Shown here: positions 16,603 through 37,340 of the stretch, in pieces
How the letters are laid out: the number at the start of each line of letters is the position of its first letter
Position numbering within the stretch: position 1 is the stretch's first letter
From: Candidatus Rariloculaceae bacterium
GTDB lineage: Bacteria > Pseudomonadota > Gammaproteobacteria > Steroidobacterales > Rariloculaceae
NCBI GenBank assembly: GCA_965262365.1
Contig: OZ253541.1
Coordinates: forward strand, 4,939,843 to 5,003,842
DNA length: 64,000 nt
Direction of reading: 5' to 3'
The notes under the pieces: generated by a model
Seen by the model: the letters and a program-made list of their open reading frames with translations, nothing else
Database searches by the model: none
What the model was told of the DNA's origin: nothing
Position numbers and translations under genes: made by a program

Positions 16603-16742
16603 ATCGATTCTCAACGTGGTGGAGTGATCGTTGCGACTATATCAAATACCGTCACGGAAGCCCGGTCAACAGGTCGCGTCGAAATACGTGGCGACTCCGC
16701 GCTATGATGTGGTCCGCTCCTTCACCACACTGCGGAAATCGC

Positions 16743-19833: not shown

Positions 19834-20939
19834 TTGATGGATTCGCTTGGACACGCGATACGGTCCGCGATCGCGAGTGCGGCGCTGCTGCAGGAGCGCC
19901 GGCAGAGTGGGGTGGCCTACAATCCCCTGTCGGCCCGGATGGCTCAGGACCCGTATCCGTTCTACGCGACTCTGCGCGCCCGGGACCCGGTGCACCGCAG
20001 CCGGCTCATGCACTCGTGGCTGTTCACACGCCATGCTGACGTGGGCGCCATCCTGCGCGACCACCGCCGCTTCGGCAACGACCCGCGCAATGGCAACCTC
20101 TCGGCCCGGCAGCCGGCGATTCTGCCGCGTTCGATCTGATGAAGGCGGTGGCCCAGCCCTTGCCGGTAATCGTCATCGCCGAGATGCTCGGCGTGCCGCC
20201 CGAGGATCGAGGACGGTTCAAGGTTTGGTCAGCGCAACGTGCGCGCCTGCTGGAACCGATCATCGGCCGCCGCGAACGCCGGCTCGCGGACGAGGCGGGC
20301 AGGGCGTTCGACGCCTATTTCGGCGCGATCATCGAGGCGCGGCGTACCGAGCCGCGCGACGATATTCTCAGTGCACTGGTACAAGCGGAGGACGAGGGTG
20401 AACGGCTGACGGCACGTGAGACCCTCAACATGCTTCGCCTGCTGTTGAGCGCCGGAAACGAAACAACCACAAACCTGATCGGCAACGGCGTACTCGCCCT
20501 GCTTCGCAACCCCGATGAGCTCCAGCGGCTCAGGGAGGACCCGTCCCTGATCCCGGCGGCGGTGGAGGAATTGTTGCGTTACGACTCGCCCGTACAGGTG
20601 GATTTTCGGCGCGTGCTCCAAGACTGCGAAGTGAACGGTTTTCCGGTGCGCAAACGTGACAACATAGTCGTCTTGCTGGGTGCGGCCAATCGGGACCCGG
20701 ACGTGTTCGAGAATCCCGACAGGCTCGACATCGCCCGCAACGCGCGCTCACACTTCGCGTTCGGCCGTGGAATCCATCATTGCCTGGGCGCCGCGCTCGC
20801 TCGCCTGGAAGGGCGGATCGTCCTGGAGATGCTCCTGGACCGATTCCCGTCGATGAGCCTGCTTACCGACCGCCCGCGGTTCCACAAGAGTATCGTGTTG
20901 CGAGGTCTCGAATCCTTGCCGGTCCGCTGTCTGAAGTGA
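19834..20939 (+). pseudogene. cytochrome P450 with internal deletion plus frame change
   Basis: The N-terminal 101 aa (PYPFYATLRARDPVHRS..WLFTRHADVGAILRDHRRF) end at a TGA at 20137-20139. The rest is in another frame: FDLMKAVAQPLPVIVIAEMLGVP, AGNETT, EELLRY, FGRGIHHCLGAALARLE (Cys-haem loop). About 50 aa, including the usual DPP.H..LR segment, are missing at the junction. Confidence 0.7.
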
Positions 20940-22347: not shown

Positions 22348-22673
22348 CTACAACCGCAACCCGCTCTCCCAGCACAACGCCTCGATCGCGATCCCGTAGT
22401 CCATTACCTCGCCCCGCCAGCCGCAGCGGGCTGTCTTCGCATCGATGTTCACACCACGGCGCTCGTTGTAAGTGGCCAGCGGCAATTCGCCCGGGTCTTT
22501 CGGCCCACGTTGAGCGGCTCGCCGTCAGCATTTTCCACCATACCGGCCTCGCTCAGATCCTCCTGCGCGATTTGCACCACCACCTGGTAGCGTTCCGCCG
22601 CCATCGCCCGCACCTTTGAATAGGAGAATCGCCCCTGCCGAAACGCTTCGCTGGTCTGCGGCAACGACTCCAA
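22348..22673 (-). pseudogene. multi-deletion remnant of a DUF222/HNH endonuclease gene
   Basis: LPQTSEAFRQGRFSYSKVRAMA is joined directly to ERYQVVVQI..GEPLNVGRKTRA. After a frameshift it continues ELPLATYNERRGVNIDAKTARCGWRGEVMDYGIAIEALCW. The HNH core itself is missing. Confidence 0.55.
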
Positions 22674-22723
22674 TGCCCGGGCTACCCGGACCTTCTCCCG
22701 CGCCGTGCATCCGTTGATACCGC

Positions 22724-22783
22724 ATCGCCAATTGAGCCACCGGGCTCCTCGCCGTAGAACGCGTTGCTCAGCAGCCGCCAGCG
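22724..22783 (-). repeat. short copy of the dispersed P-domain remnant
   Basis: CTCGCCGTAGAACGCGTTGCTCAGCAG.CGCCAGCG is shared with 59.7 kb and 51.6 kb. It encodes RRWRLLSNAFYGEEP on the minus strand. Confidence 0.5.
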
Positions 22784-22857
22784 TCGGCGTAACCGGTCTG
22801 GGCGGTATTGTTCAGGTGCCACTGGCCGGCCAGCAGCGGGTCGGCGGTGCCCGCGGC

Positions 22858-23035
22858 GCCGCCTCGCCCGGCACTCGATCATGGACTTGCCGAATGGCTT
22901 TAAGGACGACGCGCAGATGGTAGTCGAGGAAATAGGCGACATCGTTCTTCTCGGACTCGGCGTACAGGTAGGCGCGCGCATATTGCACGGGCGCCTTGGG
23001 GGGGGGGGCTTCCGTACTTGTCCAGGAAGGGGAGC
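22858..23035 (-). pseudogene. possible Fic-family C-terminal remnant
   Basis: The minus frame reads QYARAYLYAESEKNDVAYFLDYHLRVVLKAIRQVHDRV. This resembles the Fic-family segment I recall as Y.ETD.NDLTYF..H.L.VI..AI..L. The poly-C/G tract sits just upstream in the same remnant. Confidence 0.35.
22998..23008. repeat. homopolymer G(11)
   Basis: Counted directly: three G at 22998-23000 plus eight at 23001-23008. Confidence 0.9.
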
Positions 23036-23096
23036 GTGTGCGCCGCTTGGTATATATTTTCTAGGCATATGCATATAGCATGGAGCGCAAAGGTTC

Positions 23097-23186
23097 GTGC
23101 GACGGGGCTATTTCGTGCGACGGGGCTATTTCGTGCGACGGGGCTATTTCGTGCGACGGGGCTATTTCGTGCGACGGGGCTATAAT
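23097..23186. repeat. 18-bp tandem direct repeat, 5 copies, upstream of the TonB-dependent receptor gene
   Basis: GTGCGACGGGGCTATTTC occurs 4 times exactly (23097-23168). A fifth copy, GTGCGACGGGGCTATAAT, ends in a perfect TATAAT at 23181-23186, about 88 nt before the ATG at 23274. Confidence 0.9.
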
Positions 23187-23273
23187 GAGCGAGGCTGCAC
23201 GATTCTGCGAAAGGCGGTGAATGTCAGTGAGCTTTCGGCCCGCTTGCCGCTTTGGATACAAGAAGGAGAAGTC

Positions 23274-26200
23274 ATGATCAGGGGAGCAAATTCACCATCC
23301 AGACACTGCACGTGGGCCATCGTTGTCTTCTTGCCGGTGTTTGCAGCGGCCCAGGAGGGCGATCAGGAAGCATCCGAGAGCGTGCAGGCTGCGGAAATCC
23401 AGGAGGCGCCGGTCGTTCCGGCGACCGCAGTTGAAGGCGCGCAGACCACACCGGCAACCGCAATCGAAGGCGCGCAGACCACACCGGCGACCGAAGTTGA
23501 AGGCGCGCAGGCCGCACCGGCGACCGAGCTGGAGCAGGCGCCCGTGGTGCCGGCCACGGAAATCGAGGAAGTCGTCGTCACAGGCTCGCGGATTGCGCGC
23601 ACGCCGGAGGAGCTGGCCGGCAACCTCGTCGTGCTCGACGCGGACTTCATCCGCGCCTCCGGCGAAGCGACGCTCGAGCGGGTGCTGCGCCAGTTGCCGC
23701 AGAATGCCAACTCGACTGTCGAGAGCTTCGGCAGCAACCTGAATAACGTCACCAACTTCACCGGCGCATCCACCGTGAACCTGCGCGGCCTCGGCAGCGA
23801 GTCCACGCTCGTTCTGGTGGACGGCAAGCGCATCGGCCACAGCGGCTTCCTCGGCGGCGTGACCGATATTTCATCCATTCCGCTGTCGCTCGTGGAACGC
23901 ATCGAGGTGCTGCTTGACGGCGCCTCGGCCGTGTACGGCTCCGACGCCGTGGGCGGGGTGATCAACATCATCACCCGCAGGGATTACGAGGGCGCCGAAC
24001 TGGATCTCAACTACAACACGCCCAACGACGGCAGCTACGACGAGTGGCGTGGCTCGATTTCGGGCGGCTTCAACGCCGGTGGCACCCGGATCAGGGCGAG
24101 CTACACCCATTCCGATCACTCCGGCCTCGACGGCGCGGACCGCGACGTCACCCTGTTCGAGCGATCGCAATTCGCCGGACCGCAGTTCGACGTCCGCTTC
24201 TGCTGCTCGCAGGAAGGCATGGCTTTCCCCATCGTCTATCGCCTGGACGGCGATCTGGTCGCCCAGCCTGAATACAACAGGCTGTCGGCGGAGGACAAGG
24301 CCCGGGCGATGAACATAACCCACGCCGTGCTGCCGGTGGGCTTCAACGAGAATTCCACTCTTGACGATATTACCCACTTCGGCGCTCCCGACTGGGGGGC
24401 GGAAACCCAGGCCGGATGGCATGTGTTGCCCCAGAACCGCAGCGACGGTGTTTCGCTCAGCTTCGACCGGGACTTCAACGCCAATGTCAGCGGCGAATTC
24501 CGGATCCGCTATGAGAGCCGGGAAACCACGTACAACAGAGGCTTCTTCAGCTTTGGCGGAGAGACGTGGGGCCCGGCTAATCCGTCCAACCCGTTCGACA
24601 GGAACGTACACATAAGGGGTCAGCGCCGCGATCTGCCGGCGCCGGCAAACCTGACCGACTCCGACACCCTGGATCTGGGTATCGACCTTGACGGCTCCAT
24701 CGGCGACAGCGGCTGGGAGTGGGAGGCCAGTTTCGGAGTCACCACCCATGACTCCGCCACCCAGAGACTTAATCCGGTCGACAGAGCGAGTCTGATAGCT
24801 GGCTTGAGGTCGGATGGAGTTACTCCGGTCGTAGCGTCCACCACGTTCTTTGAAACAAAAGAATCGTGCGAAGCGAAAGGAGCCGTCTTCGTCGACCGCG
24901 GGTTCGGAGCGTGTGAGCTCAGAGTTCCGCCCCCGCCGGCGGCCGAACCCTTCGGCGATTTGACCGGTTACATCACCGATTCGCTGCATGCCGCCAGCAC
25001 CAACGAGCAGACGCGTTTCGATGCATTGCTGCGGGGCACACCCTGGTCCCTGCCCGCCGGCGACGTGAGCGTGCTCGTGGGTGTCAGCTCCGAGGAAATC
25101 GCGCTCGACAGCATGTCGCAATTCAAGATAGGGAACATCGGCGAATCGCCCATCGGAGACATCGCGAGCTTCGACACCGACGCCAGCCGCCGCAACAGCG
25201 CGGCGTACGTCGAGAGCCTGCTGCCGCTCGCCGGTGGGAGTGGCGCCGGACCGGACGTATCGCTGAGCCTGTCCGGGCGTTGGGATTCCTACGACGCACC
25301 GGACGTCGTTTACACGGATAGTGCGTTGGGTACCACCGAAGTGGCCGACGATCTCCCGGACCCCGGCAGCGCGTCCACCTGGGGAGCCGGGTTGGTGATC
25401 TCGCCGACGGACAGCTTTCGCTTGCGGGCGAACTGGCAGACCTCGTTTGTGGCCCCTCAACTCAATCAGTTGTTGCGGCGCACCAGCCAGAGCGAGACGC
25501 GACCGTTCCGCGGTCTGCTTGTCCAACTCCCGGACGGACGCCTGAGTCAGCAGAAAGCCTTCGTTCTCGAGGGCGGCAATGCGGACCTGAAACCCGAGAC
25601 GGCGGACACGCTGAACGTAGGGCTCGAGTACAATGCGCCGTCCGGTCTGGGCCTGAAGGTCACCTGGAACCAGACGGAGTACAAGGATCGAATCAATTAC
25701 AACGTGCCCTTCATAATCGACCGGGAAAACTTGCCCAGCAGCATAACGATCCTGCCCGGAGAGACCGACGATCCCTCGGATGACATCTGGTTTCAGGAGC
25801 GTCGCTTTATCAACGTTTCGTCGGTACAGCGCGAAGGCGTGGACCTTGAAGCCTACTACACGCACGCGACCGCCAATGGCGATTTCAGTGTCCAGCTATG
25901 GCATTCCCGGACCAGCAAGTACGATGTGGTCGTCGATCCCGCGACCGGTGAGGTCATCAGCGTCCTCGGGCACAGGGACGGCACCGACACGGTTGTCAAC
26001 GAGACGCCCGAGTCGTCGACAACGGCGCAATTCACCTGGAGCCACAGGGGATTGGAAGCTGGCCTGGACATCTCCACGAGTTCCGAGACCGGCAGCACAT
26101 TGGCCGGGGTCACGAACGTCTACAATCCGCCCACGATCGCCGACCTGACACTGAGCTATAGCTTCAACGACGGCGGGCTGATCAGCAGCGTGCCGGGTTG

Positions 26201-26363
26201 GGCCGAGGGCGCCCGGCTGTCGCTGACGGTAAACAACCTGGGCGACGACTTCGGCACGATTCGCACGACGAACGAAGAAGGCATGGTACTGGAGGGGCAG
26301 GAAACAAATCCCTCGCCGGTTTACGGCCGGGTGCTCAACCTGTCGGTACACATGTCGCTATAA
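23274..26363 (+). CDS. TonB-dependent receptor with repeat-containing N-terminal extension
   Basis: RBS AAGGAGAAG precedes the ATG at 23274. Signal peptide, 11-aa PATxxEGAQxx repeats, plug VVVTGSRIARTPEELAGNLVVLD..., TLVLVDGKRIG, GASAVYGSDAVGGVINIITR, and a long beta-barrel region. Confidence 0.85.
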   Translation: MIRGANSPSRHCTWAIVVFLPVFAAAQEGDQEASESVQAAEIQEAPVVPATAVEGAQTTPATAIEGAQTTPATEVEGAQAAPATELEQAPVVPATEIEEVVVTGSRIARTPEELAGNLVVLDADFIRASGEATLERVLRQLPQNANSTVESFGSNLNNVTNFTGASTVNLRGLGSESTLVLVDGKRIGHSGFLGGVTDISSIPLSLVERIEVLLDGASAVYGSDAVGGVINIITRRDYEGAELDLNYNTPNDGSYDEWRGSISGGFNAGGTRIRASYTHSDHSGLDGADRDVTLFERSQFAGPQFDVRFCCSQEGMAFPIVYRLDGDLVAQPEYNRLSAEDKARAMNITHAVLPVGFNENSTLDDITHFGAPDWGAETQAGWHVLPQNRSDGVSLSFDRDFNANVSGEFRIRYESRETTYNRGFFSFGGETWGPANPSNPFDRNVHIRGQRRDLPAPANLTDSDTLDLGIDLDGSIGDSGWEWEASFGVTTHDSATQRLNPVDRASLIAGLRSDGVTPVVASTTFFETKESCEAKGAVFVDRGFGACELRVPPPPAAEPFGDLTGYITDSLHAASTNEQTRFDALLRGTPWSLPAGDVSVLVGVSSEEIALDSMSQFKIGNIGESPIGDIASFDTDASRRNSAAYVESLLPLAGGSGAGPDVSLSLSGRWDSYDAPDVVYTDSALGTTEVADDLPDPGSASTWGAGLVISPTDSFRLRANWQTSFVAPQLNQLLRRTSQSETRPFRGLLVQLPDGRLSQQKAFVLEGGNADLKPETADTLNVGLEYNAPSGLGLKVTWNQTEYKDRINYNVPFIIDRENLPSSITILPGETDDPSDDIWFQERRFINVSSVQREGVDLEAYYTHATANGDFSVQLWHSRTSKYDVVVDPATGEVISVLGHRDGTDTVVNETPESSTTAQFTWSHRGLEAGLDISTSSETGSTLAGVTNVYNPPTIADLTLSYSFNDGGLISSVPGWAEGARLSLTVNNLGDDFGTIRTTNEEGMVLEGQETNPSPVYGRVLNLSVHMSL

Positions 26364-26436
26364 TCGGAGGTATGAACTCTGGCGCAGACACCGGGTCCCG
26401 AGGTAGGGACCCGGCTTCGCCACCAGGAGTATTGAA

Positions 26437-27762
26437 ATGAATCGATTCTTGAAGACATGGCTACTGGTCGTAACGTTGGCCGTCGCCGCGACCGCCACCG
26501 CCCAAGAGGGGACGTTCGTCCTGGAGGGCGACCTGTCGGCCCACTACGCCAGCGGCAATTTCGTGGTCTGGACGCCCAAACCCGCGGCCGAAACCGGGGA
26601 AGGCGCGGCCGCGACCATGGCGGCTGCTTCGACCGCGACCACGACCGCCACCCCGGCGGCATCGACCGCGACAGCAAGCTCCGGTGCCACCATGACCGCC
26701 GCTTCGACCGCAACCTCCTCCGGGAGCGCGCCGTCGTCGACGGAAGCGTCGCTCAACGTGATCGCCAGGGCGCCCCTCGGAGCCGACGGCACGTTTCGGG
26801 TGGAGGCGGCCGTGGACGCACCGCGCGAGGCGTACTTCTACGTTCTGGAGGCCCGCAGTCACGAGGGCATGCGCATGGCGCCGATGAAGGGTAACGAGTT
26901 CATTCTCGAACCGGGCAACCTGCGATTGAACATGACCCGGCCCGGGCGCTTCACCATCGAGGGCGGCATGTACAACGACGCCGTCTTCAACTCCTGGCGG
27001 CGCTCGGATGAGTACATCGCGGCCGAAGCGGAATACCTGCGCCTGATTCCCTCGGTTGAGGGCGAGACCGAAGACGAGCGCCGCGCCCGTGTCGACGGCT
27101 CTTCGGCAGCCTTCAACCGCATGCTGGGATTCGAGACCGAAGGCCGCGCCCGGGTCTCGACCACCCATCCCGACCCGCAAGTGCGCCGTCTCGTCATCGA
27201 AACCGCCTGGCTGGGCGGCCCGTGGATGCTCGATGCCTGGCGGGGGCTCGCCGAGATGACCCCGGACGATCCGTATGTCATCGATCAACTCGCGAGGGCC
27301 GAGGTGGCCGAGGCGAAACGGGTCGAGGAGCGGCGCCGCTTCGCGGTCGGCGCGGACATCCAGGACTTCGTCGCGGACACTCTGGACGGCGAATCCATTC
27401 GACTCGCCGACGTACGGGCGGACAGCGAGTTGGTGCTGGTGGAGTTCTGGGCCTCCTGGTGCGGTCCGTGCCGGGTCGAGATTCCGCACATGAAGGAGGC
27501 CTACGCCAAGTATGGCGACCAGGGCTTCGAAATCCTTTCGTTCACCGTCGACGACGACCGCCTCGACTGGGAGATCGCCTCCGAGGAAGAGGATCTGCCC
27601 TGGTTCGATACCGGGATGGGAATGGAGCACGAGGCGTCACTTGCCTACGGCGTGACCGGCGTGCCGAAGAACTACCTGGTCGAGTCCGAAAGCGGCAACA
27701 TCGTGGCGAAGGATCTGCGCGGCCATCACCTGGACATAGCGCTGGAAGAGTTCTTCCAGTAG
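26437..27762 (+). CDS. secreted TlpA/ResA-like thiol-disulfide oxidoreductase with DUF4369-like N-domain (copy A)
   Basis: Signal peptide MNRFLKTWLLVVTLAVAATATAQ; Ala/Thr/Ser low-complexity insert; LVLVEFWASWCGPCRVEIPHMKEAY (CxxC thioredoxin fold). Confidence 0.8.
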   Translation: MNRFLKTWLLVVTLAVAATATAQEGTFVLEGDLSAHYASGNFVVWTPKPAAETGEGAAATMAAASTATTTATPAASTATASSGATMTAASTATSSGSAPSSTEASLNVIARAPLGADGTFRVEAAVDAPREAYFYVLEARSHEGMRMAPMKGNEFILEPGNLRLNMTRPGRFTIEGGMYNDAVFNSWRRSDEYIAAEAEYLRLIPSVEGETEDERRARVDGSSAAFNRMLGFETEGRARVSTTHPDPQVRRLVIETAWLGGPWMLDAWRGLAEMTPDDPYVIDQLARAEVAEAKRVEERRRFAVGADIQDFVADTLDGESIRLADVRADSELVLVEFWASWCGPCRVEIPHMKEAYAKYGDQGFEILSFTVDDDRLDWEIASEEEDLPWFDTGMGMEHEASLAYGVTGVPKNYLVESESGNIVAKDLRGHHLDIALEEFFQ

Positions 27763-27772
27763 TGCTCCAGGG

Positions 27773-27847
27773 TATCGAGTTCCGTCTTATCGAGTCCTGG
27801 CGAATCGAGTCTTGGCGAATGGGATTCTCGCGAATCGGGTTCGGGCG
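27773..27847. repeat. five imperfect 15-bp tandem repeats spanning the start of the next gene
   Basis: The five units are TATCGAGTTCCGTCT, TATCGAGTCCTGGCG, AATCGAGTCTTGGCG, AATGGGATTCTCGCG and AATCGGGTTCGGGCG. The ATG at 27819 lies in unit 4. Confidence 0.7.
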
Positions 27848-29024
27848 TTTCAGTCTCTGGCGGGTCGCGCTCCTCGCCGGCCTTGCCTGGGGTTGCGAAT
27901 CCGGCACCACCGAATACCGCATCCATGGCGATCTGGGCGAAATCGTCCAGGAAGGGGAAGTCGTGCTGACTCAGTACACGGCCCTGCTCTCCGAACGCGA
28001 GGAGTTTGCGACCGCCCCCATCGACGGCGGGCTGTTCGAACTGCGCGGGGATACCTGGGCGCCGCGATTCGTTACGTTGAAAGTGCTGGTCGATGGGCAG
28101 ACCGATCAGACCATCGATCTGATCGTCGAGCCGGGTGAGGATCTACGCGTCAGCCACGGCGACTGGGTATCGGGGCTCAGCGCCGAAGGCGGCCCTTACC
28201 ATCAACGGCTGATCTCATCCTGGGAGACCAGTCCGGAGTACCTCGTAGCGCTTGAAAACTACCGGGACATCATGACCCGCAAGCAGGCGCTCGAAGACGC
28301 GGGGATCTACGCTACGGGCGCGGTGGAAGGCGAAGAATCGCTCCTGGACCGGGCCTGGGCCGGCTGGGAGGCCCTCAAGGCCATCAAGGAAGACGCGCTT
28401 GACGCCTGGGTGCGCCAGCGCGAGGATCCCCTGGCCGGCTACCTGGCGCTGGAGCTTGGCGGGCGCGACGAGACCACGACCGTGCTGGCCACTCTCGACG
28501 CGCTGGAGCCGCTGCTCCCCGATGAGGTCGTTCGACGGCAACTGCTGCCCATGCGCCTGCGATCCGAGGCCATGGACCGGATCGCGGACAACGTGGACGG
28601 GTTCGCGCTCGGCGAGCACGTGACGGATTTCGCCGTGCCGGACCTTGACGGCAATCCGGTGCGGCTGTACGACCTGCTGGCCGAAAACGAACTCGTGCTG
28701 ATCGACTTCTGGGCGGCGTGGTGTGCTCCGTGTCTGGCACAGTTTCCGCTCCTCAAGGAGCTTCGCGCCGAGTACCGCGACCGCGGCTTCGAAATCCTTG
28801 GGTTTTCCGTGGACGCCGAGGAACAGGTCTGGCGGGACACCAGCGAGGAATACGAGTTGCCGTGGCCCGACGTGAGCGATCAGCAGGCGCTGTCGAGCCC
28901 GGTCGCGATCCGCTACGGCGCTACCATCCTGCCGTTCAACTACCTGCTCGACTCAGATGGGCGGGTTTTGGGAAAGAGGTTGATGCCCGGAGATCTCGAA
29001 GCGGAACTGGCGTCGCGGCTGTAG
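27819..29024 (+). CDS. TlpA-like thiol-disulfide oxidoreductase lipoprotein (divergent copy B)
   Basis: MGFSRIGFGRFSLWRVALLAGLAWGC (lipobox-like) ... LVLIDFWAAWCAPCLAQFPLLKELRAEY. I chose the internal ATG at 27819; the upstream part of ORF 27222.. overlaps copy A out of frame. Confidence 0.8.
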   Translation: MGFSRIGFGRFSLWRVALLAGLAWGCESGTTEYRIHGDLGEIVQEGEVVLTQYTALLSEREEFATAPIDGGLFELRGDTWAPRFVTLKVLVDGQTDQTIDLIVEPGEDLRVSHGDWVSGLSAEGGPYHQRLISSWETSPEYLVALENYRDIMTRKQALEDAGIYATGAVEGEESLLDRAWAGWEALKAIKEDALDAWVRQREDPLAGYLALELGGRDETTTVLATLDALEPLLPDEVVRRQLLPMRLRSEAMDRIADNVDGFALGEHVTDFAVPDLDGNPVRLYDLLAENELVLIDFWAAWCAPCLAQFPLLKELRAEYRDRGFEILGFSVDAEEQVWRDTSEEYELPWPDVSDQQALSSPVAIRYGATILPFNYLLDSDGRVLGKRLMPGDLEAELASRL

Positions 29025-29112
29025 TCCACATTCGTTGAACTCAGGTGCGGAAGGGTAGTCACCTCATAGGAGCGTGACTGAATCACGCGGCTCGAAAACG
29101 CGGAAGATTGAC

Positions 29113-30438
29113 ATGAAGAGATGTTTGACCTGTTGGCTGATAGTTGCGTTGTCTGCTCTGGGCGCGGTGTCTTACGCCCAGGAGTCGACTTTCGTCCTGG
29201 AAGGTGACTTGTCGGCCCATTACGCCGGCGGCATTTTCGTCGTCTGGACGCCCATGCCCGCGCCCGAGACCGGGGAGGGCGCGGCCGTGACGATGGGAGC
29301 GGCATCGACGGCAGCCGCGTCCGCCACCCCGGCGGCTTCGACCGCGACTGCAGCCTCGGGTGCCTCCATGACCGCCGCTTCGAGCGCATCCTCCACCGGG
29401 AGTGCACCATCGTCGACAGAATCGACGCTGAACGTGATCGCCAGGGCGCCCCTCGGAGCCGACGGCACGTTTCGGGTGGAGGCGGCTGTGGATACGCCGC
29501 GCGAAGTGTACTTCTATGTTCTGGAGGCCCGCAGTCACGAGGGCATGCGTATGGCGCCGATGAAGGGTAACGCGTTCATCCTCGAACCGGGCAACCTGCG
29601 ATTGAACATGACCCGGCCCGGGCGCTTCACCATCGAGGGCGGCATGTACAACGACGCCGTCTACAACTCCTGGCGGCGTTCGAATGAGTACATCGCGGCC
29701 GAAGCGCAATACCTGCGCCTGATTCCCTCGGTAGAGGGCGAGACCGAAGACGAGCGCCGCGCCCGGGTCGACGGCTCTTCGGCGGCCTACTCGCGCATGC
29801 TGGGAATCGAGACCGAAGGCCGCGCCCGGATATCGAGCACCCATCCGGATCCGCTGGCCCGGCGTTTCACCATCGAAACCGCCTGGCTGGGCGGCCCGTG
29901 GATTCTCGATGCCTGGCGGGGGCTCGCCGAGATGACCCCGGACGATCCGTATGTCATCGATCGGCTCGCGCGGGCCGAGGTGGCCGAGGCGAAACGGGTC
30001 GAGGAGCGGCGGCGTTTCGAGGTCGGGGCGGACATCCAGGACTTCGTCGCGGACACCCTGGATGGCGAATCGATCCGGCTCGCCGACGTACGGGCCGGGA
30101 GCGAGTTGGTTCTGATTGAGTTCTGGGCTTCCTGGTGCGGCCCCTGCCGGGTCGAGATCCCCCACATGAAGCAAGCCTATGCCAGGTACGCTGACCAGGG
30201 CTTCGAGATTTTTTCGTTCACTGTCGACGACGACCGCCTCGACTGGGAGATCGCCTCCGAGGAAGAGGATCTGCCCTGGTTCGATACCGGGATGGGAATG
30301 GAGCACGAGGCGGCGCTTGCCTACCGCGTGACCGGCGTGCCGAAGAACTTTCTTGTGGAGTCCGGCACCGGCAACATCGTGGCGAAGGACCTGCGCGGCC
30401 ATCACCTGGATATCGCGCTGGAGGAGTTCTTCCAGTAG
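29113..30438 (+). CDS. TlpA/ResA-like thiol-disulfide oxidoreductase (copy A'), close paralog of 26437..27762
   Basis: MKRCLTCWLIVALSALGAVSYAQ ... LVLIEFWASWCGPCRVEIPHMKQAY. Roughly nine in ten residues are identical to copy A by eye, over the same length (441 aa). Confidence 0.8.
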   Translation: MKRCLTCWLIVALSALGAVSYAQESTFVLEGDLSAHYAGGIFVVWTPMPAPETGEGAAVTMGAASTAAASATPAASTATAASGASMTAASSASSTGSAPSSTESTLNVIARAPLGADGTFRVEAAVDTPREVYFYVLEARSHEGMRMAPMKGNAFILEPGNLRLNMTRPGRFTIEGGMYNDAVYNSWRRSNEYIAAEAQYLRLIPSVEGETEDERRARVDGSSAAYSRMLGIETEGRARISSTHPDPLARRFTIETAWLGGPWILDAWRGLAEMTPDDPYVIDRLARAEVAEAKRVEERRRFEVGADIQDFVADTLDGESIRLADVRAGSELVLIEFWASWCGPCRVEIPHMKQAYARYADQGFEIFSFTVDDDRLDWEIASEEEDLPWFDTGMGMEHEAALAYRVTGVPKNFLVESGTGNIVAKDLRGHHLDIALEEFFQ

Positions 30439-30456
30439 TGTGCCGGCGTCTCGTCC

Positions 30457-32436
30457 TTATCGCGCGCCGTTGAAGTAGTCCCTGGCGTGCGCGAAGGCGC
30501 CCTGACCGACCTTCTCGCCGACCAGCCGGCCCGGAATGTCATCCGCCGGCGGATGGATTCCGCCCCATATGCGTGAAAGGCTGGTTTGATCGGCGGCATC
30601 GCGATACGTGGCCCACTGCAGGGTCATGCCTACACTGGGGCCGCGTTCGAAGACCAGGAAGTCATTGGCGGGAATCTCGAATTCGCTCATGCCGCCGGGA
30701 AAGTACTCGCTGCCGGTCAGCGCCGTGAGCACTTCCGCCGCCGCGCGCGAGAACGTCGAGTGCCCGGATATGTAACCCGCGAACGGCGGCGTCACGAAGG
30801 TCGGGCGCTGGTACGGCACCCAGCGCTCGGCCAGGATCCAGTCCACGCCCGCGGTATCGGCCGTGGGATCGTCGACGAAATTCGTGCCCCGCCACGCCTT
30901 CACCTTGATCTTGCCGACATGCTCGACGGCGCCGCCGCCGATGGGATCTCCGGGCCGGACCACTTCCATGTAGCCCGGAAAGAGCGGGATGCCGGCCTCG
31001 GAGTACGAGGGCCCGGAAGGATCGGCACTCTGGCCACGGTCGGCCATTGCCCGAATGGCGGAGATGGGCCGCAGGTAGTCGTACCAGCCCTTGATGCCCC
31101 AGGCGGCGATCGCCGCATCGTGCATCGCGCCGCCCAGCGCAAAGTAGGCCTTGACGTACCATTCCATCGGATCCAGTGTCGGACCGGTGCCCTCGAACCG
31201 CTTTTCGAGCTCCGGATGATCGGCAACCTCGTTGAGGATCACGAACCAGTGCCCGGGCGGGGTCTCCGAATCCGGGCCGTCCGCCCAGTATTCGGCGAGA
31301 ACGCGGGTATAGTCGCCGCGGGGTACCAATTGCTGCGCGTAGGGTTCACTGGTGACGGGGTTGGTCGCGTAGCCCAATCCCGCATCGCCGCCATTGAAAT
31401 AGTCGAAGAAGGTATCGTATTCCTGGCCGCTGGCCGGATAGCGAAGCACGTTGCCAGTACCTGCAGGCGAAATATCCATCATCACGCCGTCGCTCGGGTC
31501 CAGGTGGGAAGACCAGACCGCCACCATCGAGAAACCGCGCTTGTAGAGGTCCGACTCCGCCCCGCGGTAACTCGGCGGCGGTCCCGGATCGTGGTAGACG
31601 TAGTAGTCGAAATCGTCGCGCCGGTAGACGGTCAGGTCGGCCTCGTCCAGGGCAAATGGCTCCACGCGGCCCCATTCGGGCCCGAGAAACGGCGGTTCGC
31701 CGTCTTCGAGCAGGTTGCCCGCCTGGTCGATGGCGATCGGCAGCGAGACCGACTGCCATCGATCCAGATCGACGATGCCTGGATTGCCCGGCTCCGTCGG
31801 ATCGATACCCGGGTTCACGGGCATGTAATTCGTAATGGCGAAATTGTTCTCCTCGTTCGAACCGTCCTGCAGACCGAAACGGATGTAACAGTCGGCGATA
31901 TGGTTCCCAAGGGCCGCGGCCGACCCCGCTGCATAATCGAGCGAAGTATCGTCCACGTCGAATTCCAGGTCCTCCATCAACAGGGCGGACGACCGCCTGA
32001 TATCGGCCACCCCCGGCGATTCGGCAAATCGATGGGTGATCAACCGATAGGCGGCATGGCTCATCGCCTCTTCCCGCGCGGCGCGAATGTCGCCCGGCCG
32101 GGCGAACTCGTCCAGGTCGCAGCCAAACCTTTCGATCTGCCTGCCGAGGAGGTAGGTTGCCGCCGTATCCGAGTGGACCGCCCAGGCGTCGTACATCGCC
32201 GCGGAAACGTGGAACAGGTTGCGGGCATGCACCGTCGGGCGCGCGTAGTCGTTTCGAATCGCCTCCAGCAACAGGTCGGTCCACTGCCTGGCGACGACCG
32301 GCCCCTGCGGTTCCGGGGTCACCGTGGGAGGTACCCCGATTCCGACGCCCCCGCCGGGACCGCCACCCCCACCCGATCCGCCGCAGCCCGCCAGCAGCAC
32401 CGACACCAGCAGGTAACGACTGCGGCGGGTCATCAT
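30457..32436 (-). CDS. PAP2-superfamily / vanadium-haloperoxidase-like lipoprotein
   Basis: MMTRRSRYLLVSVLLAGCGGSGGGG lipoprotein signal. PAP2 motifs are present: ...PYQRP, YISGHSTFSRAAAEVL, SRIWGGIHPPADD. Confidence 0.7.
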   Translation of the reverse strand: MMTRRSRYLLVSVLLAGCGGSGGGGGPGGGVGIGVPPTVTPEPQGPVVARQWTDLLLEAIRNDYARPTVHARNLFHVSAAMYDAWAVHSDTAATYLLGRQIERFGCDLDEFARPGDIRAAREEAMSHAAYRLITHRFAESPGVADIRRSSALLMEDLEFDVDDTSLDYAAGSAAALGNHIADCYIRFGLQDGSNEENNFAITNYMPVNPGIDPTEPGNPGIVDLDRWQSVSLPIAIDQAGNLLEDGEPPFLGPEWGRVEPFALDEADLTVYRRDDFDYYVYHDPGPPPSYRGAESDLYKRGFSMVAVWSSHLDPSDGVMMDISPAGTGNVLRYPASGQEYDTFFDYFNGGDAGLGYATNPVTSEPYAQQLVPRGDYTRVLAEYWADGPDSETPPGHWFVILNEVADHPELEKRFEGTGPTLDPMEWYVKAYFALGGAMHDAAIAAWGIKGWYDYLRPISAIRAMADRGQSADPSGPSYSEAGIPLFPGYMEVVRPGDPIGGGAVEHVGKIKVKAWRGTNFVDDPTADTAGVDWILAERWVPYQRPTFVTPPFAGYISGHSTFSRAAAEVLTALTGSEYFPGGMSEFEIPANDFLVFERGPSVGMTLQWATYRDAADQTSLSRIWGGIHPPADDIPGRLVGEKVGQGAFAHARDYFNGAR

Positions 32437-34163
32437 CTTTGCGGATGATCGATGACCAGTTCCCGGTTGGCGGCGAGCGCCTGCATGACGGTTCGTTCCC
32501 CGTCGGGCCACTCCACCGTCAACGTGTCGACCTGGGTCATCGAACCCAATCCGAAGAGTTGGTCGGTGGGGTTATGCGAGGCGAAGTTGCTGCCGAGGGT
32601 GACTTCGCGCAGATGATCTTCGCCCGCGATGGTCGCCACGATCCGCGCTCCAATGGCCTGCGTATTCGGCGCCGCGCCGCGCAGCCGCACGCTCAGCCAG
32701 TTGTTCGTGGTCTGGTTCATCCACAGCGTCGCTGCATTCTCGGCGTGCATGTGCAGTTGCAGGATATCCGTATCGCCGTCGTTGTCGAAATCGGCGCAAA
32801 CGATGCCGCGGCCCTGCTCGGCGTCGTCGAGTCCGAGTTCCTGCGCGCGCTCAGTGAACGTGCCGTCGCCGTTGGAGACAAAAGCCCTCGACGTATCGGT
32901 GTTGAACCCTCCATAAAAGTCCCAATTCTGCCAGCCGTTGGTGTGATAGATGTCGAGGTCGCCGTCGTTTTCAAAGTCCAGGAAACAACTCCCCCAGCCC
33001 CAGCCACCGTCCGTCACGCCGGCCTCGGCCGTGACGTCGGCAAACGTGCCGTCGTCGTTGCGGTACAGCCGGTTGCCGACGCGTGACAAGCGGAACGGAA
33101 CGTCTTCGCCCACCGCACGGATGCTGCTGACGAACCAGTCGAGATCGCCATCGCCGTCAAAGTCGCCGACGGCCGATCCCATGCCGTTGCCGTCAATGAT
33201 CACGTCGTAGTCCGTGACGTTGCTGAACGTGCCGTCCCCGTTGTTGATGAACACCTGCGTGGAGTTGAAATCGGCGACCACAAGAATGTCGGGAAATGCA
33301 TCGTCGTTGATATGGGCGAACGTCGGCGCGAACGTATGATCGCTGTTTCGCTCCGTCACGAGTGGATCGGTACTGCTGATGATCGATGGCGCGATTCCGC
33401 TTTGTTCGCTGACGCTTGTAAAGCGTATGCCGGCGCTGTCGCTGTCGTTGCGCCACAGGTGCTCGGTATCTCCCGGGTTGCCGGCATAGTCACGCGGCGT
33501 ACCCCAGTGCGCCAACATCAGATCCAGATCGCCGTCGAGATCGTAGTCGCCGAACGCCGGCGACATGCTGTTTTGGGCACGCATGCGATCCAGGCCCGAA
33601 CCGCTCGATACGTCCGTGAACGTGCCGTCGCCGTTGTTGGCGAACACCATGGTGGGATCGCCGTCCAGGCCCGGCAGCACCAGGTCTAGGTCGTTGTCGC
33701 CGTCGAGATCCGCGAACGCGGGTGAACTGTGCCGGTAACTTCCGAAAATGGACTTCGTGGCTGCCACGCCGGCCTCGGCTGCAACGTCCTCGAAGACCAG
33801 GTTCCCGGTGTTGCGATAAAGAAGATTCGGGCCGCTGTCGCCGCGTACGATGAACAGGTCTATGTCGCCATCGTCATCGTAGTCGCCCGCCGCCGCGCCG
33901 CTGGGCAGGGTAATCGTCAATTCGGAATTCGACATCGGTTCGAGAAAGCCTACCGTGAAGCTGATTCCGGAGGCCGCCGTCATATCCACGAACATGGCCG
34001 AGCCGGTCGGCGGCGGGGGTGGCGGCGGCGGGGGTGGCGTTACAGGCGGCGGCGGGCCTCCGCCTCCGGGGGGATTCGCCGGACCGCCGCCCGAACCGCC
34101 GCCGCAACCTGCCGCAACGGCGACGCAACCGACGACAGCGAATGTCCTGAAACGCGCTGTCAT
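32433..34163 (-). CDS. CRTAC1-family protein (FG-GAP/VCBS repeats + ASPIC/UnbV), copy A
   Basis: 576 aa: repeated DYDDDGDIDLF, DLDGDNDLDL, DFDGDGDLDWF, DFENDGDLDIY, DFDNDGDTDI. C-terminal REVTLGSNFASHNPTDQLFGLG..VDTLTVEWPDG is the UnbV_ASPIC part. Start overlaps the upstream gene by 4 nt. Confidence 0.8.
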   Translation of the reverse strand: MTARFRTFAVVGCVAVAAGCGGGSGGGPANPPGGGGPPPPVTPPPPPPPPPPTGSAMFVDMTAASGISFTVGFLEPMSNSELTITLPSGAAAGDYDDDGDIDLFIVRGDSGPNLLYRNTGNLVFEDVAAEAGVAATKSIFGSYRHSSPAFADLDGDNDLDLVLPGLDGDPTMVFANNGDGTFTDVSSGSGLDRMRAQNSMSPAFGDYDLDGDLDLMLAHWGTPRDYAGNPGDTEHLWRNDSDSAGIRFTSVSEQSGIAPSIISSTDPLVTERNSDHTFAPTFAHINDDAFPDILVVADFNSTQVFINNGDGTFSNVTDYDVIIDGNGMGSAVGDFDGDGDLDWFVSSIRAVGEDVPFRLSRVGNRLYRNDDGTFADVTAEAGVTDGGWGWGSCFLDFENDGDLDIYHTNGWQNWDFYGGFNTDTSRAFVSNGDGTFTERAQELGLDDAEQGRGIVCADFDNDGDTDILQLHMHAENAATLWMNQTTNNWLSVRLRGAAPNTQAIGARIVATIAGEDHLREVTLGSNFASHNPTDQLFGLGSMTQVDTLTVEWPDGERTVMQALAANRELVIDHPQR

Positions 34164-34293
34164 CGTTCCAATCTTAACGGACGAACAAGCCCCCGGGGGC
34201 CTCGATTCGTGCCGTGCGTTCCCTCAGGTCGGAGATATCGGAGCGGACCGCCCAGGCGTCGTACATCGCCGCGGAAACGATTGCGGCGGGTAT
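34164..34293. repeat. duplication junction scar between the two CRTAC1 copies
   Basis: 34164-34200 equals 36025-36062 (sequence just downstream of copy B). About 34201-34247 equals about 36150-36196 (3' end of the small membrane gene). About 34248-34275 equals 32176-32210 (inside the PAP2 gene). About 34276-34293 equals 32421-32455 (PAP2 gene start). Confidence 0.7.
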
Positions 34294-36024
34294 TCATCGC
34301 TGCGGATGATCGATGACCAGCTCCTGGTTGGCGGCGAGCGTCTGCATGACGGTCCGTTCGCCGTCGGGCCACTCCACGGTCAACGTATCGACCTGGGTCA
34401 TCGAACCCAATCCGAAGAGTTGGTCAGTGGGGTTGTGTGAGGCGAAGTTGCTGCCGAGGGTGACTTCGCGCAGTTGGTCTTCGCCCGCGATGGTCGCAAC
34501 GATCCGCGCGCCGACGGCCTGGGTATTCGGCGCCGCGCCGCGAAGCCGCACGCTCAGCCAGTTGTTCGTGGCTTGGTTCATCCACAGCGTCGCTGCATTG
34601 TCGGAGTGCATGTGCAGTTGCAGGATATCGGTGTCGCCGTCGTTATCAAAATCAGCGCAGACGATGCCGCGGCCCTGCTCGGCGTCGTTGAGTCCGAGTT
34701 CCTCCGCGCGCTCTGTGAAAGTGCCGTCGCCGTTGGAGACAAAGGCCCTCGACGTATCGGTGTTGAACCCTCCAAACTCGTCCCAATCCTGCCAGCCGTT
34801 GGTGTGATAGATGTCGAGGTCGCCGTCGTTTTCGAAGTCCAGGAAACAACTCCCCCAGCCCCAACCTCCGTCTGTCACACCGGCATCGGCCGTTATGTCG
34901 GCAAAGGTGCCGTCGTCGTTGCGGTACAATCGATTGCCGACACGCGACAAATGTGACGGAACGTCTTCGCCCACCGCACGGATACTGCTGACGAACCAGT
35001 CGAGATCGCCATCGCCATCGAAGTCGCCCACGGCCGATCCCATCCCGTTGCCGTCAATGATCACATCGTAGTCCGTGACGTTGCTGAATGTGCCGTCCCC
35101 GTTGTTGATGAATACCAGTGTGGAGTTGAAATCGGCGACCACGAGGATGTCGGGAAGCGCATCGTCGTTGATGCGGGCAAAAGTTGGCGTAAATGTGTTG
35201 TCGAAGGTTCGACTCGTGACGAGCGGATCCCGGTTGACGACGATCGACGGCGCGATTCCGCTCGCTTCACTGACGCTGGTAAACCGAATGCCGGTGTTGT
35301 CGCTGTCGTTACGCCAGAGGTGTTCGGTATCTCCGGGAACGCCCGCCAAGCCCCACACCAGGCCCCAGTGACCGAGCATCAGGTCGAGATCGCCGTCGCG
35401 ATCGTAGTCGCCGAATGCCGGCGACATGTTGTGTTCGGCGCGCATGCGGTCCAGGCCCGAACCGCTCGTTACGTCGGTGAACGTACCGTCGCCGTTGTTG
35501 GCGAACAGCAAGGTGGAATCGCCGTCCAGGCCCGGCAGCAACAGGTCCAGATCATTGTCGCCGTCGAGGTCCGCGAATGCGGGTGAACTGTGCCGGTAAT
35601 TTTCAACGGCGGACTTCGTGAATGCCACGCCGGCCTCGGCTGCGACGTCCTCGAAGACCAGGTTCCCGGTGTTGCGGTAAAGAAGATTCGGTCCCCTGTC
35701 GCCGCGGACGATGAACAGGTCGATGTCGCCGTCGTCATCGTAGTCCGCCGCCGCCACGCCACTCGGCAAGATCATCGCCACTTCGGGATTCGATATCGGT
35801 TGGAGAAAGCCTACCGTGAAACTTATTCCGGAGGCCGCCGTCATATCCACGAACATGGCCGAGCCGGTCGGCGGCGGGGTCGGCGGCGGCGGGGGTGGCG
35901 TTACAGGCGGCGGCGGGCCTCCGGTTCCGGTGGGATTCGCCGGACCGCCGCCCGAACCGCCGCCGCAACCTGCCGCCACGGCGAAGAAACCGACGACCGC
36001 AAATGTCCTGAAACGCGCTGTCAT
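34294..36024 (-). CDS. CRTAC1-family protein, copy B (tandem duplicate)
   Basis: Same length (576 aa) and the same repeat and UnbV motifs as copy A. Most positions are identical by eye. Confidence 0.8.
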   Translation of the reverse strand: MTARFRTFAVVGFFAVAAGCGGGSGGGPANPTGTGGPPPPVTPPPPPPTPPPTGSAMFVDMTAASGISFTVGFLQPISNPEVAMILPSGVAAADYDDDGDIDLFIVRGDRGPNLLYRNTGNLVFEDVAAEAGVAFTKSAVENYRHSSPAFADLDGDNDLDLLLPGLDGDSTLLFANNGDGTFTDVTSGSGLDRMRAEHNMSPAFGDYDRDGDLDLMLGHWGLVWGLAGVPGDTEHLWRNDSDNTGIRFTSVSEASGIAPSIVVNRDPLVTSRTFDNTFTPTFARINDDALPDILVVADFNSTLVFINNGDGTFSNVTDYDVIIDGNGMGSAVGDFDGDGDLDWFVSSIRAVGEDVPSHLSRVGNRLYRNDDGTFADITADAGVTDGGWGWGSCFLDFENDGDLDIYHTNGWQDWDEFGGFNTDTSRAFVSNGDGTFTERAEELGLNDAEQGRGIVCADFDNDGDTDILQLHMHSDNAATLWMNQATNNWLSVRLRGAAPNTQAVGARIVATIAGEDQLREVTLGSNFASHNPTDQLFGLGSMTQVDTLTVEWPDGERTVMQTLAANQELVIDHPQR

Positions 36025-36126
36025 CGTTCCAATCTTAACGGACGAACAAGCCCCCGGGGGCTCTAGAATCGATTAACGAATTTCAGGCCATTGATCTCGC
36101 GGCTCAGCGCCGAAGGCGACCCTTGC

Positions 36127-36423
36127 CTAGCGGCTCTCGGGCGTCACGCCCACGTGGACCTCGATTCGTGCCGTGCGTTCCCTCAGGTCGGAGATATCGG
36201 AGCGCATCACGCGAATGTCGCCGCGAATCTCCGCGACATCGCCACGCAAGGCGGCGTGTTCCTGTGCGGCCGATGCGCGCAACGCGGCATGTTGTTCGTC
36301 GGCCGATCTGCGCATCGCATCGTGTTGCGTGACGATGAGCGTGGCGATCGCGATCGTCGATGCCAGCACCGTGCCCACCGTGGAGCCGATGATCGTGAAT
36401 GTCTGTTGCCGGTCGGAATTCAT
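36127..36423 (-). CDS. small single-pass membrane coiled-coil protein, 98 aa (may extend to 36627)
   Basis: MNSDRQQTFTIIGSTVGTVLASTIAIATLIVTQ (TM) followed by ...HAALRGDVAEIRGDIRVMRSDISDLRERTARIEVHVGV. Related to 43867..44202. Confidence 0.5.
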   Translation of the reverse strand: MNSDRQQTFTIIGSTVGTVLASTIAIATLIVTQHDAMRRSADEQHAALRASAAQEHAALRGDVAEIRGDIRVMRSDISDLRERTARIEVHVGVTPESR

Positions 36424-36645
36424 GCCATGCTCAACGGTTGGCGGCTCGCGGCAGTAACCTCCCGCTTGGGCCTCCACGCAGTCCGCCAACATCCCCATGG
36501 TAACCCAGTCCAGTTCGGCAAGCACCGGCATTTCCGGCTGTTTGGGCAAGAAATGATCGGTCGGCCTGCTGCCGAAAGGGTTGTATGCTTCGGATTTACC
36601 CGGTAATCTTTCCTTACATTCCGACATCCTTTTATCGGGAAAATC

Positions 36646-36882
36646 ATGCTTGCGAAATTAACGGCAAAGAACCAGATGACATTACCCAAGTCGGTACTGG
36701 CCACCTGCGAAGAAGCGACCTATTTCGATGTCACCAGCGAAAACGGTCGAATTGTATTGACGCCGGTCCGCATTAATCGTGCCGATGCCGTGCGAGCGAA
36801 GTTGGCCGAACTGGGAATTACGGAGAAAGACGCGGCGGATGCCGTGTTGTGGGTACGCGGTAATCCAAAACCCGCCCGATGA
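36646..36882 (+). CDS. AbrB/MazE/SpoVT-family antitoxin
   Basis: MLAKLTAKNQMTLPKSVL...RIVLTPV is the SpoVT-AbrB fold signature. The stop overlaps the toxin start (ATGA). Confidence 0.75.
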   Translation: MLAKLTAKNQMTLPKSVLATCEEATYFDVTSENGRIVLTPVRINRADAVRAKLAELGITEKDAADAVLWVRGNPKPAR

Positions 36883-37334
36883 ACCCGCCGCGCCCGGTGC
36901 TCGACACCAACGTACTGCTTTCGGCGCTACTGTTTTCCTCCGGCACACTAACGTGGCTGCGACGCGCGTGGCAGGCGAAAACGATCCGTCCTCTGGTGAG
37001 TCGCGAGACCGCAATGGAACTGATTCGAGTACTCGCCTATCCGAAGTTTCGGCTGTCGGTCGATGAACGCGAGGACTTGCTGGGCGATTTCCTGCCGCGG
37101 TGCGAAACGGTCACGGTACCGAAGGGGGTCTAGGTGCCCGAATGCCGCGACCCGCTGGATCGACCGTTCCTGGAGTTAGCGGTCGTGGCAGAGGCGGATT
37201 GGCTCGTGACGGGCGACAAGGATCTGCTGGCCCTGGAATCGGCATTTTCTGTGCCAATTGTGACACCGGCTTCGTTTCGCGAGATCCTGGGCATCAGCGC
37301 CGATCCCAGGCATCGCGGTCGACCCGGGCCGTAA
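36879..37334 (+). pseudogene. PIN-domain toxin (TIGR00305-like) interrupted by an in-frame TAG
   Basis: VLDTNVLLSALLFSSGT..., then TAG at 37131-37133, then the same frame continues VPECRDPLDRPFLELAVVAEADWLVTGDKDLL. Both halves of one PIN domain lie in one frame (36879 and 37134 are both multiples of 3). Confidence 0.75.
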
Positions 37335-37340
37335 TGACCG

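Follow-up and report, generated by a model that had tools for sequence, protein, structure and literature searches.

A probable juxtaposition of two extracytoplasmic modules in a gammaproteobacterial genome: a TonB receptor and TlpA-like operon beside a CRTAC1-like propeller paired with a vanadium-haloperoxidase-like lipoprotein

The 64,000-nucleotide (nt) stretch analysed here, which we call the window (Candidatus Rariloculaceae bacterium, contig OZ253541.1, forward-strand positions 4,939,843 to 5,003,842; coordinates below are those of the window unless a locus is named), carries between 23274 and 36024 two convergent groups of genes for exported proteins. A TonB-dependent receptor (TBDR) followed by three TlpA-like periplasmic thiol:disulfide oxidoreductases is encoded on the plus strand, and two CRTAC1-like lipoproteins followed by a PAP2-superfamily lipoprotein that resembles vanadium haloperoxidases (VHPO) on the minus strand. 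An original prediction from the letters of the window had seen in these genes a single cluster, and its gene identities and the extracytoplasmic nature of the products are borne out by Pfam domains, signal sequences and lipoboxes. All seven genes are confirmed at their positions, with the expected domains, CxxC motifs, export signals and two duplications. Its interpretation as a whole is partly supported. We consider it probable that the locus consists of two independent extracytoplasmic modules, TBDR-TlpA (module A) and the tight CRTAC-VHPO unit (module B), which have been neighbours since module B landed between the TlpA operon and a gene for an M16 peptidase. Judged by sequence comparison, the seven-gene cluster looks like a lineage-specific and recent juxtaposition of the two modules and not one system.

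As a conserved cluster the seven-gene unit does not hold up, because the convergent layout was found only in the sister strain (L004), whose DNA is ~94% identical. In this strain an insertion sequence (IS) element takes the place of the first 1.66 kb of the TBDR gene, while the CRTAC-VHPO genes are intact; its TlpA2 gene is also split, which could be an assembly error at 6x coverage, whereas the IS insertion cannot. Four other relatives (L001, L003, L005 and L006), with VHPO-like proteins 89, 85, 83 and 66% identical to that of the window, have CRTAC followed by VHPO without the TBDR-TlpA operon, and nucleotide homology of the window with the first three is limited to 30462-34165/36026, which is exactly the CRTAC and VHPO-like genes. 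The loci L003 and L087 belong to one 6.0-Mb genome in which the modules lie 1.3 Mb apart, L087 carrying an orthologue of the window TBDR (73% identical) and then two TlpA genes. In L088, the DNA of the TBDR gene, its three TlpA genes and the gene for the M16 peptidase is ~80% identical to that of the window. The distance from the last TlpA gene to the M16 peptidase gene is 1.2 kb in L088, with no CRTAC or VHPO-like gene in between, compared with 6.9 kb in the window, where the interval holds the VHPO-like gene, two CRTAC genes and a small open reading frame (ORF). Thus, the CRTAC-VHPO genes look to have been inserted into an older TBDR-TlpA-M16 arrangement, the M16 (insulinase-type) peptidase gene (37341-40115, minus strand) marking the ancestral right flank of module A.

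The same picture emerges over larger distances. Linkage of TBDR/TlpA with CRTAC/VHPO is absent from loci at 49-79% TBDR identity, except for CRTAC-only neighbours in L089 and L095. Module B was surveyed in 80 species-representative genome loci with a VHPO-like protein, the ORFs of all six frames being compared with profiles made from the window proteins; TlpA-like genes lie within 10 kb of the VHPO-like gene in four of these loci, never along with a TBDR. The linkage of the PAP2-like and CRTAC1 proteins to TBDR/TlpA, which had been put forward for a neighbourhood search, is thus rare. Two modules that have only recently come together in an accessory region can give the appearance of a tidy convergent cluster of exported proteins, which calls for caution when such clusters are read as systems.

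Module B is a tight functional unit, a 3.7-kb cassette of two lipoproteins joined by an ATGA overlap. At 81-89% protein identity, relatives carry this cassette in other genomic surroundings. It consists of the gene for CRTAC1-like lipoprotein B (CRTAC_B, 576 aa; 32433-34163, minus strand) and that for the VHPO-like lipoprotein (659 aa; 30457-32436, minus strand), the enzyme of the module. The 4 nt at 32433-32436 (...AGATGATGACC...) belong to the stop of CRTAC_B and the start of the VHPO-like gene; the overlap had been described the other way round, as one between the CRTAC1 start and the PAP2 end. A second gene of the same strand, at 34294-36024, encodes the paralogue CRTAC_A (576 aa). The CRTAC proteins belong to the CRTAC1 family by their five FG-GAP_3 stretches (E 8e-44) and UnbV_ASPIC domain (E 4e-16) in Pfam, and they match the sequence of the human CRTAC1 structure 9etn directly (E 1e-16); their FG-GAP blades contain four DxDxDG calcium-binding loops. 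Canonical lipoboxes, LAGC in the VHPO-like protein and AAGC in both CRTAC proteins, are each followed by a Gly/Pro tether. The small ORF at 36127-36627 (minus strand), which encodes one transmembrane helix and a C-terminal coiled-coil-like repeat and has no Pfam match, had been counted as a member of the minus-strand unit. We reject it as part of the cassette: its homologues occur in the sister strain alone, and DNA homology with the other relatives ends at the CRTAC start.

The pairing of propeller and enzyme is conserved far beyond the window. The CRTAC-then-VHPO order is common to relatives at 66-89% VHPO protein identity, and among the 80 surveyed loci the two parts occupy one stop-free ORF of ~1250-1350 aa in 37, are adjacent genes in four and lie nearby in five. 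Where the upstream DNA exceeds 2.5 kb, which is so in 66 loci, they are linked in 44. By Pfam, the fusions run FG-GAP_3, UnbV_ASPIC, an immunoglobulin (Ig)-like linker (Flg_new_2 or PKD), DUF6851 and VCPO_2nd, the last two being the domains of the window's VHPO-like protein as well. Fusions from Bacteroidota end in Por_Secre_tail, a type IX secretion signal; in other versions there are MopE-type metal-binding repeats or a carbohydrate-binding domain of F5/8 type C. In P0361 (1751 aa), two CRTAC units precede the VHPO domain in one polypeptide, which is the 2:1 layout of the window genes. Such fusions argue strongly for joint action of the two proteins, and their secretion signals place them outside the cytoplasm. 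Another gammaproteobacterium has independently amplified the CRTAC-VHPO unit, with two complete fusion genes in tandem followed by a third CRTAC gene (L040, 2451-12205).

The only clearly recurrent neighbour of CRTAC-VHPO is a TBDR gene, present in 8 of 21 gammaproteobacterial loci; in L005 and in L011, which has a natural fusion, for example, it immediately precedes the unit on the same strand. The receptor profile, which matched almost nothing when made from the window TBDR alone, was reseeded with the receptors of L003, L005 and L006. We considered whether the window TBDR might be an inverted orthologue of the receptors upstream of CRTAC-VHPO elsewhere and rejected this, since the BLASTP match is not significant (E 0.07).

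The enzyme of module B has an intact PAP2/vanadate site, K449-x6-R456-P457, S557-G558-H559 and S621-R622-x5-H628-x3-D632, written in the protein as KGWYDYLRP, YISGHS and SRIWGGIHPPADD and corresponding to the PAP2 signature KxxxxxxRP / PSGH / SRxxxxxHxxxD. K449, R456, P457, S557, G558, H559, R622, H628 and D632 are invariant in all 88 family sequences aligned, which come from Gammaproteobacteria, Bacteroidota, Rhodothermales and other groups. The intact motifs of the original prediction, to which K449 has to be added, therefore stand, and the alignment gives no sign of the loss of vanadate- or phosphate-binding residues that would have spoken against it. A profile search of PDB sequences retrieved only vanadium haloperoxidases (XhnO11 9l8x, NapH3 8cxl, 9ptr, Zobellia 4cit and NapH1 3w35), and the vanadate-coordinating residues align with the K..RP, SG and SR..GG.H segments of 9l8x, 8cxl and 9ptr. 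An AlphaFold2 model of medium quality (mean predicted local distance difference test score (pLDDT) 68, predicted template-modelling score 0.75) gave the same result on the structural comparison that had been proposed: the top 14 Foldseek matches in the PDB, led by NapH3, are all vanadium haloperoxidases (E 2e-13 to 4e-8, target-normalised TM-score 0.64-0.69), and the protein is accordingly predicted to adopt their fold of two four-helix bundles.

These results place the protein, as far as sequence and model go, with the vanadium haloperoxidases as a probable exported variant, coupled to a propeller and often linked to a TBDR. At least 7965 homologues were retrieved from a database, several sources naming them vanadium-dependent haloperoxidase, and the clade comprises 821 clusters at E <=1e-30 in a library clustered at 50% identity. 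Between Gammaproteobacteria and Bacteroidota its members are still 55-68% identical, and cultivable carriers include Cognaticolwellia mytili KCTC 52417, Winogradskyella spp. and Fulvivirga marina. Known sources of vanadium haloperoxidases are algae, fungi, a few Streptomyces natural-product pathways and one flavobacterium. The analysis reveals a large and strongly conserved clade across Gammaproteobacteria, Bacteroidota, Rhodothermales and other groups, whose members are predicted to be exported to the cell surface and are CRTAC-linked in most of the assessable loci. Should they prove to be active haloperoxidases, reactive halogen species and organohalogens in marine sediments, on algae and in sponge tissue would have a widespread source in bacteria, and a first functional handle on bacterial CRTAC1/UnbV proteins would be gained.

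In the mechanism that we propose for module B, the CRTAC and VHPO-like genes would be translationally coupled, and both lipoproteins would be located at the outer membrane, probably in physical contact. The propeller would bind or present an extracellular substrate, or organise a complex at the cell surface, and the enzyme would use peroxide, with or without halide, to oxidise or halogenate the substrate. In many Gammaproteobacteria, the product might then be taken up through the dedicated TBDR encoded directly upstream.

Module A is a conserved operon in its own right. Its TBDR (23274-26363, plus strand) is identified as a TonB-dependent receptor by Pfam Plug (E 7.5e-18) and TonB_dep_Rec_b-barrel (E 2.1e-28) matches, and none of the substrate-specific NCBIfam models is matched above its cut-off. 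The receptor carries a signal peptide and conserved cysteines, a vicinal pair C310-C311 and C532, and belongs to an orthologue family populated at 45-98% identity. The linker between the signal peptide and the plug domain contains an Ala/Pro/Thr/Glu-rich PATxVEGAQTT repeat, encoded by a 33-nt tandem repeat at 23418-23526; the spread of orthologue lengths, from 986 to 1069 aa, suggests that its copy number varies. A second, perfect tandem repeat of 18 nt (TTCGTGCGACGGGGCTAT x5; 23094-23183, without strand) lies ~90 nt 5' of the TBDR start, and could be a regulator-binding array or a hypervariable spacer.

The three genes that follow the receptor on the plus strand encode TlpA1 (26437-27762, WCGPC), TlpA2 (27819-29024, WCAPC) and TlpA3 (29113-30438, WCGPC), in agreement with the motifs first reported. 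TlpA3 is a paralogue of TlpA1, to which TlpA2 is 30% identical. In these proteins, Pfam matches to AhpC-TSA, Redoxin and Thioredoxin_8 lie behind a weak DUF4369-like N-domain of ~250 residues. Like Sec signals, the N-termini of the TBDR, TlpA1 and TlpA3 consist of a charged n-region and a hydrophobic core followed by an AxA-Q/E site. TlpA2, with its ATG placed at 27819, has the non-canonical AWGC as its sole lipobox and may be a lipoprotein. As exported thioredoxin-fold proteins with a CxxC motif they fall within the TlpA/ResA group, and their NCBIfam scores stay far below the cut-offs (ResA best, 75-79 against 170; TlpA 39-44 against 230), so that from these profiles they would be classed as superfamily members and not as any named equivalog (ResA, TlpA or DsbE). 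For none of the eight proteins, the small-ORF product included, does an NCBIfam model reach its cut-off, and the VHPO-like protein, the CRTAC proteins and the small-ORF product have no NCBIfam match at all. Weak NCBIfam matches to Sec-motif receptors and WAxxUGC ResA-like proteins had raised a selenoprotein lead, which was dropped because they cover only the plug or the thioredoxin core and score far below the cut-offs; selenoprotein families of this kind exist according to a review.

One to three TlpA-like genes with the same architecture of N-domain and thioredoxin fold follow the TBDR in every orthologous locus with readable downstream DNA (loci examined: L087, L088, L089, L090, L091, L094, L095, L096, L114, L115 and L116; a metagenome scan for TBDR orthologues yielded ~8 usable loci of 24), and the operon persists down to 40% TBDR identity. 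The TlpA1-type gene has been duplicated in at least two lineages, at differing positions in the operon. An M16 peptidase gene recurs beside the operon in the window, L004, L088 and L114, as does a gene for DsbD, a membrane protein that gives electrons to periplasmic reductases, in L089, L114 and L116. At L089 (14341-17601), a 1086-aa protein of DsbD_N, DsbD_TM and extra thioredoxin/AhpC-TSA domains adjoins the TBDR-TlpA operon and a lone CRTAC gene. Module A may couple uptake to disulfide reduction: the TBDR would import a substrate, which the periplasmic TlpA-like CxxC reductases would then reduce with electrons from DsbD, whose gene is close by in other genomes. Disulfide-containing peptides are a possible substrate in view of the M16 peptidase gene beside the operon. 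A promoter and terminator scan of 22400-37400 found sites no commoner than in shuffled sequence, and operon boundaries therefore gain no support from it.

Several points weigh against our reading of two independent modules, one of them built around a haloperoxidase. The VHPO-like protein is only ~17% identical to solved vanadium haloperoxidases, the active-site loops of the model fall below pLDDT 50 at 542-554 and 620-631, and the haloperoxidase assignment of the whole clade is drawn from sequence and model comparison. NapH3, the top structural match, is a vanadium haloperoxidase homologue that catalyses a rearrangement instead of halogenation, and the fold is therefore no guarantee of halogenation. 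In 22 of the 66 assessable loci, mostly from Saprospiraceae, no CRTAC partner of the VHPO-like gene was detected; the Saprospiraceae proteins have other C-terminal domains attached. The TBDR profile is made of gammaproteobacterial sequences and probably misses the SusC-type receptors of Bacteroidota. Finally, three of nine lineages have a CRTAC-type gene within 3 kb of an orthologous TBDR-TlpA operon, and the modules are perhaps not fully independent.

This last point supports the view, implied in the original prediction, that the seven genes together make up a single redox system of the envelope. In it, a peroxide-using enzyme tethered by CRTAC would oxidise an extracellular substrate or make oxidants and the TBDR would import the product, while TlpA reductases, fed by DsbD, would reduce the imported product or repair oxidised envelope thiols. 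The three lineages are the window with L004; L089, which has next to the DsbD fusion a lone gene, convergent with the TBDR-TlpA operon, for a CRTAC lipoprotein at 55% identity to CRTAC_B; and L095, where a lipoprotein-like fusion of CCP_MauG (di-haem cytochrome c peroxidase) and CRTAC (14523-17885, 1120 aa) directly follows TBDR-TlpA on the same strand. At the background density of CRTAC genes in the loci of this study (5 per 875 kb), ~0.3 such adjacencies would be expected (Poisson p ~0.004). The CCP_MauG-CRTAC fusion is found in at least 120 proteins (45-97% identity) from Alcanivorax, Salinisphaera and other Gammaproteobacteria and is thus a real family, so that CRTAC is joined to two unrelated peroxide-using enzymes. 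However, the statistic is post hoc and pools a few lineages that differ in architecture and orientation, and we treat it as a lead. The closest relatives lack the linkage, TlpA-like genes seldom occur near VHPO-like genes, the TBDR that accompanies CRTAC-VHPO elsewhere is of an unrelated family, and the IS element of the sister strain has cut the TBDR and left CRTAC-VHPO intact. We therefore regard a single seven-gene system as unlikely.

Since CRTAC is fused to two unrelated enzymes that use peroxide, we favour peroxide chemistry for module B and consider a looser redox link to TlpA/DsbD possible. A bolder proposal would make CRTAC1-type propellers the dedicated partners of cell-surface peroxide-using enzymes, both VHPO-like and di-haem, which together with TBDR and TlpA/DsbD would form an undescribed pathway; organic matter, or a compound derived from a host or alga, would be oxidised or halogenated outside the cell, imported and reduced in the periplasm, and the window would be one instance of this pathway and not an accident. 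Taken as a whole, this proposal seems to us doubtful.

Equally, we give little credence to the VHPO-like protein being a surface phosphoesterase or acid phosphatase and not a peroxidase. In this reading it would act with its propeller partner on extracellular organic matter, and the phosphate or dephosphorylated nutrient set free would be taken up in a TonB-dependent way. In its favour, the PAP2 phosphatase signature is invariant in full, down to the charge-relay Asp, and sulfatase and phosphodiesterase genes lie near CRTAC-VHPO in a few loci. Moreover, the Foldseek match 3bb0 is an apo-chloroperoxidase with a phosphate intermediate trapped during dephosphorylation, so one site is able to do both chemistries. 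However, the sequence and fold matches are to two-bundle vanadium haloperoxidases, whereas the small bacterial class A acid phosphatases appear in Foldseek only at E ~4, and the propeller fusion to a di-haem peroxidase in another family again points to peroxide.

Within the two modules of our preferred reading, both duplications that had been called recent are real. TlpA1 and TlpA3 are 87% identical in protein sequence (dS 0.32, dN/dS 0.24; synonymous rate and nonsynonymous-to-synonymous ratio, respectively), and CRTAC_A and CRTAC_B 88% (dS 0.33, dN/dS 0.20). A dS of ~0.32 in both pairs argues that they are not very recent, while a dN/dS of ~0.2 indicates that both copies have been kept under purifying selection, in line with the earlier argument for selection on this part of the region. 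The 130-nt spacer between the CRTAC genes (34164-34293, minus strand) retains the trace of the event: 44 nt from the 5' part of the VHPO-like gene remain at 34236-34279 (95% identical to 32166-32209), and 60 nt from the 3' end of the small ORF at 34186-34245 (93% identical to 36145-36204). The two remnants mark the spacer as the junction of a tandem duplication that reached from within the small ORF to within the VHPO-like gene, and the duplicated VHPO fragment appears, from these matches, to have been deleted later down to its remnant.

The individual families of the locus are all known and annotated as such in public records. With NapH1 (3w35/3w36), NapH3 (8cxl), XhnO11 (9l8x) and the Zobellia galactanivorans iodoperoxidase (4cit/4usz), the VHPO-like protein shares the two-helical-bundle fold and an alignable Lys/Arg/Ser-Gly-His/Arg/His site. 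In contrast to these enzymes, it has, besides its low identity, ~200 additional residues, including insertions that separate the bundles; it belongs to no natural-product pathway but is a lipoprotein or, in Bacteroidota, a protein secreted by the type IX system (T9SS); it is paired or fused with a CRTAC1-type propeller; and its sequence is very strongly conserved across phyla. The window CRTAC proteins have FG-GAP calcium-binding blades and UnbV_ASPIC in common with animal CRTAC1 (9etn) and the enediyne cluster protein E4, but they are bacterial lipoproteins with a Gly/Pro tether, have no EGF-like domain by Pfam and have a VHPO-like genomic partner. The CCP_MauG-CRTAC fusions of Alcanivorax, Salinisphaera and others likewise join the propeller covalently to a peroxide-using enzyme behind a lipoprotein-like N-terminus, but theirs is a haem enzyme and not of the vanadate/PAP2 type, and it precedes the propeller. 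In the literature searched, we did not find a description of the CRTAC-VHPO pairing or fusion, of a function for the VHPO-like clade, or of a function for bacterial CRTAC1/ASPIC/UnbV proteins; a Zobellia transcriptome paper mentions only induction of an iodoperoxidase.

The TlpA-like proteins resemble the TlpA/ResA/CcmG reductases in thioredoxin fold, WCxPC motif and export signal, and in having DsbD beside orthologous operons; they differ in the added N-domain of ~250 residues and in their placement, in one to three copies directly after a TBDR and not in a cytochrome-maturation locus. A TBDR followed by a surface binding and enzyme part, as CRTAC-VHPO is in many Gammaproteobacteria, recalls the SusC/SusD-type TonB-dependent loci and may work alike, although the accessory enzyme is oxidative or of the PAP2 type and not a glycoside hydrolase. 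The window locus itself is not of SusC/SusD type: the receptor scores 43.6 against a cut-off of 368 for OMP_RagA_SusC and 22.8 against 46.2 for the SusC signature, there is no SusD at the locus, and the genes after the TBDR are TlpA-like.

The relatives compared here are uncultured Gammaproteobacteria labelled Woeseiaceae, Pseudomonadales or Candidatus Azotimanducaceae, and we take the accession prefixes of several metagenome contigs that match (LXNI, LXNJ, MKWU) and the names of metagenome-assembled genomes (SB, COS, IRC and RHO bins) to be those of marine sponge microbiome projects. Elsewhere in the window, 40686-49514 holds a run of eukaryote-like or adhesion-type proteins with Calx-beta (1031 aa), Spondin_N (853 aa), He_PIG Ig-like and leucine-rich repeat (LRR) domains, and tetratricopeptide repeat (TPR) proteins are also encoded. 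Calx-beta, Spondin_N, LRR and TPR proteins would be in keeping with life in association with a host, for instance a sponge. A DDE transposase and a cytochrome P450 ORF consisting of the C-terminal half only (model positions 215-433 of 462), at 13329-15116 and 20139-20939, agree with the decay earlier ascribed to the surrounding accessory region. Short overlapping ORFs at 36779-37483, where L004 (5008-5696) has an intact PIN-domain toxin/antitoxin pair, may represent a decayed toxin-antitoxin locus. Two adjacent ORFs on opposite strands at 15565-17753 match DUF6152, a family that also occurs near TBDR-TlpA in L087 and near CRTAC-VHPO in L001.

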